This document shows positions 20,586-54,582 of a stretch of 64,000 nt of DNA, piece after piece. Where the stretch lies: the NCBI GenBank assembly GCA_000004985.1, contig GG738927.1, one strand, 5' to 3'. Every line of letters begins with the position of its first letter. Position 1 is the first letter of the stretch. This DNA comes from Naegleria gruberi (lineage: Eukaryota). The position numbers and the translations under genes are program-made. The notes under the pieces were generated by a model that was not told the origin of the DNA, did no database searches, and saw only the letters and a list, made by a program, of their open reading frames with translations.

Positions 20586-21654
20586 ATGACTCAATTTCCT
20601 ATGGAAAATGTCTTTCCATCATTCTATTGTGAATGTTATCCTCACACGAAAGGAAAGGATCATTACAACATTGCAATTGCTTTAATCTTTCGTCAATGTT
20701 TCTATTCGAATTCAGATGTGGCAAGTTATGTGATTGGATGGTTGAGTATTCTTACTAGTATGATTAGTTTATTTCCACAAATTATTAAGAATTTCACATT
20801 GAAATCCTCAGCTGGCTTATCAATTTATGTTTTTGTAATTTGGATGATTGGTGATATTACTAATCTTGTTGGGTGTATTTTGACTAATCAATTAGCAACA
20901 CAGATTTATTTGGCAGCTTATTATGTTGCAATGGATGTGATTATTATTTCACAATATATTTGGTATGAGTTCAAGTTTGAACAGTTTAAGAAGTTGTTGG
21001 AAAGAGTTAGAAATTGGAAGAAATCAAACGAAAGTTCAAAGCATGCAACTTCATCTCTACAAACTAGCACAAGTGGATCTACATCTACTGAAATGACAAC
21101 AACTCAAAAGACCATTCTTCCTTCTCACTATTTACCCAATTTGTTAACTCTAATTATAGTAATATTGATGATTGTAATGGCAGAATTGACTCAAGGTGAA
21201 GAGGAAATAATGATGATGGTGCAGAGTTGTGTTTCATCCACTGAACAACCTCAATATTTATACATTTTGGGAATTGTTTGCTCATACATTTCATGTATCT
21301 GTTATGTTGCAGCACTAGCTCCACAAGTTTACAAAAATTATAAAAGAAAAGGAGTGAAAGGTCTTTCAGTAAGTTAATTCTTAAATGTCACGTTTCAAAC
21401 CAATTGTTCAGCTCTTAATGTTTTTAATTGATGAATTAACTCAAATCCTGTACATTGTCAGTATTATTGTTGCGTATGGACAGGAGGATGCAGTGTTTGA
21501 TCCAATATCTGGAGTACCTTATTTACTTGGAAGTGTTGCAACCTTTGGTTTTTCTTTCATTATTGCCTGCCAATTTTGGTATTATAAAAAGAAGAACAAT
21601 ACTCCAATTCAAGAGATGCCACAAAATGATCCACAATCTGTTGAAAATAAATAA
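20586..21654 (+). CDS. PQ-loop repeat (cystinosin/PQLC2-like) 7-TM transporter. Two exons: 20586..21368 and 21412..21654. Intron is 43 nt.
   Basis: First PQ-loop: LFPQIIKNFTLKSSAGLSIYVFVIWMIGDITNLVG. Second: LAPQVYKNYKRKGVKGLS, then the intron (GTAAGT...TTGTTCAG), then LLMFLIDELTQILY. The GLSLL junction matches the PQLC2 pattern. Both exons are phase 0. Confidence 0.7.
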
Positions 21655-21718: not shown

Positions 21719-23749
21719 TTAATAACTGTAAATATCAGCACTAACAGCTTCAGATTCACAATCACATTCATCAGTACCTCTCTTAATCTTACTAAAATAT
21801 AATTATTTGATTAATAATCATGAATAAATTAATAACTTACAAGAAACCTATTGAATTAAAAAATATTTTAACATGTTCATGAAATTGAATATTCCAAATT
21901 AATTGATAATTGATTAATAACTCAAAAATCACTCATAAAAACGTACCGTTAATTCCCCATGATGTACCCCATGAATTCTTAACTAACCAATATGGAACTC
22001 CATTTTCTTCACCCCAACCAACAAGCAAAACAGCATGGTTAGTTTCTTCCCAACCTGGTTCAGCAATCTTGGTCTTGAGAGCAGTTGAGTGAGTGTAAAC
22101 ACCTCCCTTATAATTGAAAAAGTCATCATAGACTTCAAATGCAATAGCAAGTGGACCTCCATGATACAATTCATACATCATATTCTTAGCATTAGTAGCT
22201 CCGTAAAAACCTCCAGTGTAGGCATAGTTAGTACCATAAGCTCTCTTTGGACATTGATCCTTCTTACAGACACTATCAACACCCTTGTATGGATCACATG
22301 ATTCTTCAGCCAAACCATAATCTTCAGCATACTTGGAAACCAAATACATGAAACCACCATCACATCTACAGATATTGTTTAGTTAGTTACCAAGATCTGA
22401 TTGATGGTGAAAAATAAACTTACCCTTGAGAATATGCGGAACATTCAACAATATCTTGTGGAGAATAAACTGGTGTCTTAGTACCATTAGTAATAACACG
22501 AACTCTACTGCCAAACATGTCACTTGAACTGAACGCATAGCAACTTCCGCAGACTTACCATATTTGGTAATTCAAAATAAATAAGTTTCCATATTTGATC
22601 AATTCAAAATATAAATAAAAAAAAAAAAAAAAAAAAAAAATAAAAAAAAATAAAAAAACATACACCTTGATTTCTGACTGGAACAACCAAATTCATGCCA
22701 TTAACATTGGTCCAGGAGAATTCCTTTGGCAATGCATTAACATCTTCTTCAGTAATAATCTTCTTGTTACCATTAACTCTTGCTTGAGTTTGGAAAATAG
22801 TTTGGAATCTTTCCTTTTGAGCCTTCAAAGCAGCCTTACGATTCTTGTTAGCAGTACGACCACCAGCAATTCTTCTCATAAATTCGAGAGATTTACCTTC
22901 AAATTGTGGATAGGCAGTAGCTTGCCACATCTTTTGACTCTTGTTAATAGTATTAATCTTTTCCATATTATTGGTAAAGACCTTATTCTTCAAGTCAACC
23001 TTTGGAGCAGACATGAGTTCATGTTCATGAGTGGATTCAGATGGAGCACCAGTTCTAATACCTCTGAAACAACCGAACTATTTCAATCATCATCACGATC
23101 ATTCAATTTTGTTAAAAGTTATTGTAAAATAGGTTGAGAATAGAAACAAACCTTCTTAACAGCAATACCAGCATCATGATACCAACCAGTGAAGGTTTGA
23201 CCACAGTTACTAGTAACAACCTTTCCTTGTTGGGTATAATTGAAGAAGGCGAAATACTTTTGCTTGTTAATAACAACTTCAAAGCCTTGATCCTAATTTT
23301 GTATAAATAATGATATGATGATGACGATGATGATAATATAATGTTTGTATTAATATTTGGTTCATGATAATAAAGTGCGTAATGATTAATATATTAATAC
23401 ATGATAATGATGAATGATGATGAATAATTAAAATATTAATATAAAAAATGATGAATAATTTAAAACGTACATAAATCAAAGTCCAGAAGCCTTCATTTCC
23501 TTGTTCATCATAAACAACATCAGGAGCCAACAATCTCAATTTAATAGTGTCAACATTAACATTAGGAAGAGGATTAGTCAAAGCACAAGTATTATGAACA
23601 ACATCATTAGAGAATGAAGTTGAGGTACGATAGAAGGTCCAATCACCGAAAACTTGATGGAACAAGCAATGGACAGGGATATCACCGTTGACCATCACAA
23701 CCAAACCACACAATAAGAGTGTGGAAATGATTACTTGAGAAATTTTCAT
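21719..23749 (-). CDS. Cathepsin C / dipeptidyl peptidase I homolog (papain family, C1). Seven exons on the minus strand, approximately 23749..23471, 23292..23152, 23077..22666, 22553..22424, 22365..21947, 21847..21841 and 21791..21719.
   Basis: A signal peptide is followed by the exclusion domain (DIPVHCLFHQVFGDWTFY...YDEQGNEGFWTLIY | DQGFEVVINKQKYFAFFNY...TGWYHDAGIAVKK | FGCFRG...). The catalytic region reads LPKEFSWTNVNGMNLVVPVRNQ..CGSCYAFSS...ECSAYSQGCDGGF...VYDDFFNYKGGVYTH...TNHAVLLVGWG...[33 protein letters not shown]. The match to human cathepsin C is residue-by-residue. Introns carry GTA(A/C)GT...AG signals. Confidence 0.85.
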
Positions 23750-52904: not shown

Positions 52905-54582
52905 TTAAAAGTTTTTGTTTTGAGTAAAAGTTCTAACCATTTCCAACACATTCTTTCCTTGATTCATTGGAGACATATGTCCGGCTTTGTTGACCAAAAT
53001 AGTTACCAAATTATCATATTGATGAGAGTAACCAACAATTTGACCGTCAACCTTCCATGGCTTTCTACCAAGACCCAAATCTTGATTGAAAGAACTAGCT
53101 CCATGCCAGTTCATTGATTGAATCCAATTGGTAGCTCCAACGGAATTAACTATCCAATCGTACTGACCATTATATAACAATACACGCACCTTTCTTTCTG
53201 GGCTATCAAGTAAAGCTTCAACCTTATATTTGACAGACTTGGCAATATCAGCCAAGAGATTATTCCAAACATCATTGTTTTCATCGTAATATTTGACACC
53301 TTCTGTGTGCATGAGCTTTTTGGTTTCTGGCAAGTTTACATATTGGACGTAGGCAGAAATGTCTGGATCTCCATAACTTCTAATATCGTAAACATTGACA
53401 CCACCAGCACATTGATTAATTACAAAGTCTGTGAGATTATTGTTAACATTCATAACATCGACAAATCTCTTTTCCTTGATAAGTTTAACAATTTGATCTT
53501 GATAATTCTTAACAACTGCTCTTTGAGGTCCATCAATCAAACCAGTGGCAAAAGAATAAGTATCATAACTGGCAAATTGAATTTCTGGATCAGTTAAACC
53601 ATCCTAAAATTGATTTAGTTTACAAATTTGAAATAATAAAAACCTACACCAATACCAATACCGGCCAAATTGAATGGGAAACCAGAATTCATAATACTAT
53701 TTTATGAATCAATGTAAATTCCAAATTCCAATATTTATAAACTTACTTGTAAGCAATAGATGGAACTATTTCAATGTGAATAATTTAAATTTCATAAAAT
53801 ACTTACTATATTTTCCAGCATAACTTTCACCAAACAAGTACAATTCATTACCTCTATATTTTCTAGCAAAGTCCAATTGGAAGAATTTTTCCAAAAAGAT
53901 ATGCACCTCACTAGCAACTCTATCTTCACTGTGAACATAACCTGGAGATTGAACATGTGAGAAACCGCTTCCCAATGGATTATCAAGCCAAATCTTTTGA
54001 CAGTTTGGTGAATTAGCTCAAAAATATTGAAATGACATACCATGTGATAATCATAATTCCAAGTTGTTGGATTCTTGACAAGTTTCAAAGTTTTTGGATC
54101 TACAAGATATGGTCCATTTTCAACAAACAATCCAAATTCACTTCCGGCACCAGGTCCTCCTTGGAACCAAATAATAACTTTGGTCAATCAGCAAAATTTC
54201 ATCATACACATTTTGAATAATTAATTATTAAATGATCAATCACTTGTGAAAATCTAAACATACTTGGACTATCAGCCTTTCCACTCAAAGCTTCACTAAA
54301 AACATAATACATTTGTCCCTTGTATGTCGAATTTACTTCAATAAAACCACTAAATTCAAATGGATTATTATCCATATCAACCTTGACATAATCTTCAGGC
54401 GAAATCTTCATTGGAAGAGGTGCTGGAGCAAGTCTCCTCCTTCCAGCTATCTTCTTTCCTCTCAACAAATCCACAAATAAATTAGATGTTGGAGGAGCCT
54501 TTCCTTCCGAGCCTTCCAACATCATCATGAACATTAGCGCAGAAAAGCACAACAATAAAACGATCAAGTAATTGGCGCGCAT
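52905..54582 (-). CDS. Serine carboxypeptidase (peptidase S10). Six exons: about 54582..54264, 54177..54041, 53993..53807, 53765..53747, 53696..53648 and 53603..52905.
   Basis: Signal peptide, then ...FIEVNSTYKGQMYYVFSEA...SP | IIIWFQGGPGAGSEFGLFVENGPY...TTWNYDYHM | IWLDNPLGSGFS...ELYLFGESYAGKY (active-site Ser) | IPSIAY (19-nt exon) | NIMNSGFPFNLAGIGIG | DGLTDPEIQFASY...NKAGHMSPMNQ (active-site His). All introns are 41-86 nt with GTA(A/T)GT...AG. Confidence 0.85.

Follow-up and report, generated by a model that had tools for sequence, protein, structure and literature searches.

The minus strand of a 64,000-nucleotide (nt) stretch of Naegleria gruberi DNA (contig GG738927.1, assembly GCA_000004985.1; hereafter the window, whose coordinates are used throughout) carries the gene for cathepsin C, or dipeptidyl peptidase I (DPPI). 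Close to its 3' end, this gene contains a 7-nt coding segment, GTTTCTT, that lies between two short introns and is interpreted here as a constitutive microexon, a term used for internal coding exons of up to 30 nt. The gene and its parts, with GC denoting guanine plus cytosine content, are as follows:

21719..23749, minus strand: cathepsin C / dipeptidyl peptidase I gene NAEGRDRAFT_75630, coding span, seven exons; product XP_002669412.1
23749-23471, minus strand: exon 1, translation as in XP_002669412.1
23292-23152, minus strand: exon 2, translation as in XP_002669412.1
23077-22660, minus strand: exon 3 of the reference model, translation as in XP_002669412.1
22554..22666, minus strand: intron 3, with ambiguous boundaries, adjoining the active-site Cys
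22553-22424, minus strand: exon 4, translation as in XP_002669412.1
22365-21947, minus strand: exon 5, 419 nt, with the 3' end TGG GGA ATT AAC G, phase 1 within a Gly codon
21848..21946, minus strand: intron 5, 99 nt, 19% GC, from GTACGT (21946-21941) to TTCAATAG
21937..21942, minus strand: alternative weak donor GTTTTT which, joined to 21791, gives the in-frame sequence INGTKIKRG, one residue short
21841..21847, minus strand: 7-nt microexon GTTTCTT, preceded by TTCAATAG and followed by GTAAGT
21792..21840, minus strand: intron 6, 49 nt, 12% GC, from GTAAGT to TATTTTAG
21719..21791, minus strand: last coding exon (T AAG ATT AAG AGA GGT ... TAT TAA), preceded by TATTTTAG; stop codon at 21721-21719

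When exon 5, GTTTCTT and the last exon are joined, the reading frame is kept and the product aligns to human DPP1 without a gap across the segment. The microexon provides the second and third nucleotides of a Gly codon, the complete Phe codon TTC and the first two nucleotides of the next Phe codon, and its residues are G463-F464-F465 of a protein of 488 amino acids (aa). In an alignment of 12 homologs, the Gly is invariant, the following Y/F and F are nearly invariant, and there are no gaps at these positions. In papain-like peptidases, these residues (Gly185-Tyr186-Ile187 in papain) belong to the stretch after the catalytic Asn and NSWG, within the core of the second domain. Without splicing, the open reading frame (ORF) stops at INGTFL*, and skipping of the microexon (21947 joined to 21791) shifts the frame and destroys the C-terminus. 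The segment thus has splice sites on both sides, is set between introns of 99 and 49 nt, and is needed both for the frame and for conserved residues. The first-pass annotation of this DNA, made from the letters alone, had proposed the microexon; its coordinates and motifs for GTTTCTT, the acceptor, the donors and the last exon (21791) are exact on the minus strand, and the run of the unspliced ORF into INGTFL* was seen as described.

The protein encoded by the seven exons has the domains and catalytic residues of cathepsin C (MEROPS C01.070). Human DPP1 (3pdf_A; E 2e-115) and rat dipeptidyl peptidase I (1jqp_A) can both be aligned to the spliced model over the entire mature chain, through to the C-terminus. 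The exclusion domain is recognized by Pfam PF08773 (CathepsinC_exc; residues 23-147, E 1.7e-41) and the papain fold by PF00112 (Peptidase_C1; E 4.3e-55). The motifs around the catalytic Cys, His and Asn (CGSCY, NHAV and KNSW) are invariant columns among the 12 aligned homologs. At the N-terminus, the Asp of MKISQVIISTLLLCGLVVMVNG|DIPVHC lines up with the first residue of mature human DPP1 (DTPANC); the signal peptide was judged by eye only. All seven exons are open, and the exclusion domain and the catalytic triad residues are intact. The closest homolog among the matches displayed is a protein of N. lovaniensis, at 72% identity. In the seven-exon model, the introns measure 178, 74, ~110, 58, 99 and 49 nt, and all of them are poor in GC (12-29%).

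Translation of this model, including the 7-nt exon, reproduces exactly the 488-aa protein XP_002669412.1 (EFC36668.1; UniProt D2W2L3), as established by exact-sequence look-up. Judged by this identity of the translated product, the splice pattern with the microexon is already part of the public reference annotation; it is of an ordinary, known kind. The expectation of the first-pass annotation that gene predictors would miss such an exon did not hold in this case, and neither did its attribution of the DNA to a dictyostelid: the source is N. gruberi (Heterolobosea), and a different ORF in the window matches N. gruberi Sec15 at 100% identity. The exact match also ruled out the idea that the gene is unannotated in N. 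gruberi, which had arisen when no N. gruberi match with at least 90% identity was displayed; XP_002669412.1 sits in a 90% cluster that is displayed under a 138-aa metagenome ORF fragment (P0134). The product, microexon residues included, appears as DPPI(1) of Naegleria gruberi (MEROPS MER0345059) in the alignment of a 2022 study of DPPI evolution (PMC8836896, Suppl. S1). The copy in that supplement ends in DIYSYH, one His beyond XP_002669412.1 and the genomic TAT TAA, which is probably a transcription artefact. We found no paper commenting on the cathepsin C microexon or discussing microexons in Naegleria. The check shows that the earlier splice reasoning was sound and has little significance beyond bookkeeping.

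The microexon was set against other ways of splicing the same segment by enumerating every GT-AG model with one or two introns, from exon 5 to the end of the gene, that stays open through the junctions (n = 270) and scoring each against the C-terminus of the N. lovaniensis protein. The microexon model has the top score, 258. The third-best model (236) uses the alternative donor (21942 to 21791) and yields INGTKIKRG; an alternative acceptor (21946 to 21777) is also in frame, yields INGTDEC and scores 207. The claim of the first-pass annotation that direct joining breaks the frame therefore stands for the GTACGT donor of exon 5 and fails for these two in-frame joins that dispense with the microexon. 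The Pfam Peptidase_C1 profile assigns the following bit scores to the alternatives:

Microexon model: 198.9
Alternative donor at 21942: 186.8
Read-through: 180.0
Alternative acceptor at 21777: 176.7

The microexon model thus exceeds the best in-frame alternative without the microexon by 12 bits.

The chance occurrence of such a segment was estimated with a first-order Markov model trained on the introns of the cathepsin C gene, for a span of 155 nt. The expected number of AG|N7|GT segments is 0.057, that of segments also encoding G-[FY]-F is 3.5e-4 and, when the donor GTNNGT is additionally required, 1.3e-5. Chance fails as an explanation because of the expectation of 3.5e-4. When both strands of the window (128 kilobases, kb) were scanned for an acceptor followed by 1-20 nt and a consensus donor, with flanks of at least 80% AT, two sites only were found, namely GTTTCTT and a 19-nt exon of a carboxypeptidase gene (see below).

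A close relative provides an evolutionary view of the same sequence. The 3.5-kb contig L002 from an ENA metagenome has 95.3% DNA identity to the window and covers most of the cathepsin C gene. The string AATAG|GTTTCTT|GTAAGT is identical in L002, and the surrounding parts differ in ways typical of exons and introns: exon 5 shows a single substitution among its 419 nt; intron 5 shows 3, including a change of the donor from GTACGT to GTATGT; and intron 6, which is 47 nt long in L002 instead of 49, differs by 1 substitution and a deletion of 2 nt, so that it cannot serve as coding sequence. The last exon opens with T in the window and with C in L002, which gives the codons TTT and TTC, both for Phe; this synonymous codon arises only when the last exon joins the TT of the microexon. 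Gene-wide, the exons differ by 16 substitutions with 0 indel columns over 1185 nt, and the introns by 23 substitutions with 43 indel columns over 493 nt; indels are limited to introns. Among the changed codons, 9 changes are synonymous and 5 non-synonymous. Elsewhere in the gene, a T-run in intron 3 (22615-22655, minus strand) is 16 nt shorter in L002, and intron 4 differs by a 13-nt indel and 20% substitutions.

Several points weigh against the microexon. The reference gene model may rest on prediction instead of expressed sequence tags. Metagenome and metatranscriptome contigs scanned for any spliced junction (with the microexon, from the alternative donor or by skipping) gave 0 matches. The microexon is absent in N. 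lovaniensis, in a second Naegleria-like contig (L003) and in Willaertia, which makes deep conservation unusable as support. Finally, an in-frame model without the microexon exists, in which exon 5 would be 4 nt longer (AAC GGT AC|GTTTTT, donor 21942) and would be joined directly to the acceptor at 21791 by removal of a single 151-nt intron; since intron 3 of the reference model itself uses GTTTTT, this type of donor is not to be dismissed outright.

The single 151-nt intron is the alternative that survives best, and we nevertheless regard it as very unlikely. Its product is one residue shorter, with Thr replacing Tyr/Phe-Phe, that is, a residue is removed where the 12 homologs have no gaps, and the loss relative to the microexon model amounts to 12 Pfam bits. 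GTTTTT has no G at position +5, unlike the other donors in the window gene and in its N. lovaniensis ortholog. If the 151-nt intron were removed, positions 21943 (C in the window, T in L002) and 21791 (T in the window, C in L002) would lie in one codon, which would change from Thr to Ile; with the microexon, the same two differences are one intronic and one synonymous. Moreover, removal of the 151-nt intron leaves a perfect TAG|N7|GTAAGT unexplained.

Unproductive splicing is less probable again. Intron 5 could be retained, ending the protein at the INGTFL* that appears in the ORF list, or the acceptor at 21777, whose join to 21946 is in frame, could be used, giving a protein without FFKIKRG. 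However, the profile match of both forms ends at position 198-200 of 220; both drop the conserved core segment, and the read-through form also drops the conserved RG.DEC..E tail. Besides, the downstream exon is kept in L002, where its sole change is synonymous.

A different difficulty concerns intron 3, next to the active site. In the 12 aligned homologs, the oxyanion-hole Gln and the Cys of CGSC are always separated by two residues, and no canonical GT-AG splice of intron 3 in the window gives this Q-x-x-CGSC spacing. The candidate splices and their Peptidase_C1 scores are:

Reference model, donor GTA T|GTTTTT (22659): NQGVFCGSC, one residue too many, 193.5 bits
Donor G|GTGTAT: NQVCGSC, one residue too few, 190.1 bits
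GTATGT...GGTAA|G, with an AA acceptor: NQGVCGSC, 198.9 bits, the best

At the same place, L002 has GGAAG|AGT TGC, which gives the canonical NQGSCGSC. The doubtful junction of the reference model puts an extra residue beside the active-site Cys, and the insertions of N. gruberi DPPI have been taken as real in a published structural comparison (PMC8836896). The start of exon 4 is also unusual: its first 21 nt (22534-22554, minus strand) carry 7 differences from L002, compared with ~1% in other exons, reading TGC GGA AGT TGC TAT GCG where L002 has TGC GGC AGC TGC TAC GCT, and all of these differences are synonymous except for V/S. The pattern resembles that left by gene conversion over a short tract, with a paralogous cathepsin gene that encodes the same peptide, CGSCYAFSS, as a potential source. 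The intron 3 oddity might stem from an assembly error of 1 nt, from an acceptor outside the canonical set, from a small conversion tract or from a true insertion.

The least probable of the alternatives is that the gene copy of the reference strain is decaying or unexpressed and the microexon has no functional meaning: the failure of canonical intron 3 splices to keep the universal Q-x-x-C spacing would fit decay, as would the protein searches, in which no transcript-derived protein of the gene turned up (their E-value cut-offs would exclude short fragments), but the seven exons are open, the protein retains the catalytic Cys, His and Asn, the exclusion domain and a signal peptide leading into Asp1, and the comparison with L002 shows exons free of indels and more synonymous than non-synonymous changes.

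Taken together, the sequence data indicate, with a probability of roughly 0.9, that the constitutive 7-nt coding exon at the 3' end of the N. gruberi cathepsin C gene is real; we infer that it is present in the mature mRNA. That this exon is required for a cathepsin-C-like C-terminus, as the first-pass annotation held, is borne out by the gapless alignment to human DPP1, the first place among the 270 models, the 198.9 Pfam bits, the comparison with L002 and the identity to XP_002669412.1.

How such a small exon might be spliced can be outlined from the layout of the gene. Two short, AT-rich introns (99 and 49 nt) would flank a constitutive 7-nt exon, the inclusion of which restores the frame and supplies the Gly-Phe-Phe of the conserved NSWG..WG.NG[YF]F.I.RG segment that follows the catalytic Asn. 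Inclusion would have to be the default because the length of 7 nt makes skipping a frameshift. Recognition across the intron (intron definition) seems likely because the introns are short (43-178 nt), the donors, GT(A/C/T)(A/C/T)GT, are strong and the acceptors are TAG. Introns 5 and 6 are probably removed sequentially because 7 nt are too few to hold the 3' splice-site complex and U1 together. The smallest of these introns belongs to the neighbouring gene, a convergent PQ-loop transporter gene (20586-21654, plus strand) whose end is 64 nt away from the stop codon of cathepsin C and whose two ORFs join via a 43-nt intron, GTAAGT...TTCAG (21369-21411). Judging by this neighbour, introns of ~45 nt are normal in the N. 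gruberi genome.

The first-pass annotation had proposed a look for a conserved microexon in orthologs as a check, and the comparison did not reveal one outside the N. gruberi lineage: the 95%-identical L002 keeps it, and G-[YF]-F is uninterrupted in N. lovaniensis, L003 and Willaertia. The N. lovaniensis ortholog has a single intron in the segment, AA|GTAAGT...AATAG|T GGT TAC TTT AAG, located 2 nt from the position of intron 5 in the window, and no second intron. In L003 (72% identical in protein), introns sit at two different places and GGC TTC TTC is unbroken, and the Willaertia magna ortholog is intronless. Among the genes compared, intron 6 is found in the N. gruberi lineage only. Intron 5 would then correspond to the single N. 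lovaniensis intron, with its boundaries shifted by 2 nt, and the 49-nt intron 6, additional in the N. gruberi lineage through gain there or loss elsewhere, would have cut 7 nt off the last exon. By this sequence comparison, the microexon is specific to the N. gruberi lineage and is a recent, lineage-specific product of intron turnover.

Across the whole gene, 6 introns in N. gruberi stand against 5 in N. lovaniensis; two positions are identical between the species and a third is offset by 2 nt. In L003, the introns of the C-terminal part lie at still other positions, and Willaertia magna has none (loci compared: L001 3001-4798, L003 2016-3790, L036 501-2003). Such strong differences in intron positions among cathepsin C orthologs suggest high intron turnover among these heteroloboseans. 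A search of metagenomes for more relatives returned distant cathepsins only, and two loci considered as relatives of cathepsin C (L033 and L034) proved on inspection to be unrelated cathepsin-B-like genes. Two possible origins of intron 6 were considered and found no support. For duplication of intron 5, the similarity is marginal (p = 0.034 against dinucleotide shuffles) and includes the shared donor motif; for an introner-like repeat or mobile element, neither intron 5 nor intron 6 has further copies in the window.

The window microexon has a counterpart in a cathepsin C paralog of N. lovaniensis. The gene C9374_008973 (P0004; L037 738-744, PYSW02000036.1) contains an annotated microexon of 7 nt, GTGATTG, flanked by introns of 124 and 99 nt. 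As in N. gruberi, a phase-1 intron interrupts a Gly codon (G|GT) and is followed by 7 nt starting with GT and then by a GTAAGT donor. The paralog microexon occupies another position, where it encodes the conserved G-D-W of the N-terminal exclusion domain, and the introns downstream of the two microexons show no sequence similarity. Of the two introns around the C9374_008973 microexon, P0001, which is the N. lovaniensis ortholog of the window gene, contains just the first. The N. gruberi counterpart model of this paralog (P0017, 430 aa) starts just past the G-D-W region and may be truncated because of an exon of the same kind.

Another small exon lies in the window itself, in a serine carboxypeptidase (S10) gene: 19 nt at 53747-53765 (minus strand), in the arrangement ATTGAAATAG|TTCCATCTATTGCTTACAA|GTAAGT. 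Spliced by hand, this gene reads GESYAGKY-IPSIAYN-IMNSGFPFNLAGIGIG and gives one contiguous match to Pfam PF00450 (E 9e-31). Small exons, as far as these sequences go, do not seem rare in the N. gruberi genome.

A bolder idea, for which the odds appear poor, is that Naegleria may form tiny exons unusually often, through the addition of an intron a few nucleotides past one that is already there. Its basis is the pair of independent 7-nt microexons, in cathepsin C paralogs of two species, with the shared layout G|intron|GT+5 nt|GTAAGT intron; in both cases, the corresponding gene of the other lineage has only the first intron. The 19-nt carboxypeptidase exon within the same 64 kb is a further instance of a small exon. 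If true, this pattern would point to local intron gain near existing splice junctions and would offer a simple system for studying how the spliceosome handles 7-nt exons without the microexon factors of animals.

Among known microexons, those of animal neurons that depend on SRRM3/4 are regulated cassettes, usually with lengths that are multiples of 3 nt, and rely on animal-specific splicing factors. Only the size class is common to these and the N. gruberi exon, which, at 7 nt, would cause a frameshift if skipped. Closer parallels are offered by constitutive microexons of other eukaryotes. In plants, constitutive coding microexons of up to 15 nt are described as evolutionarily conserved and mostly unannotated in a 2022 report in Nat Commun (PMC8831610), and human MPC1 contains a constitutive 4-bp microexon (PMC9929638). 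The plant and MPC1 exons resemble that of N. gruberi in that they are tiny, internal, have canonical splice sites and maintain the frame of conserved domains; those with lengths that are not multiples of 3 need constitutive inclusion, and the same applies to the 7-nt exon. Unlike the plant microexons, the N. gruberi exon is lineage-specific and already annotated.

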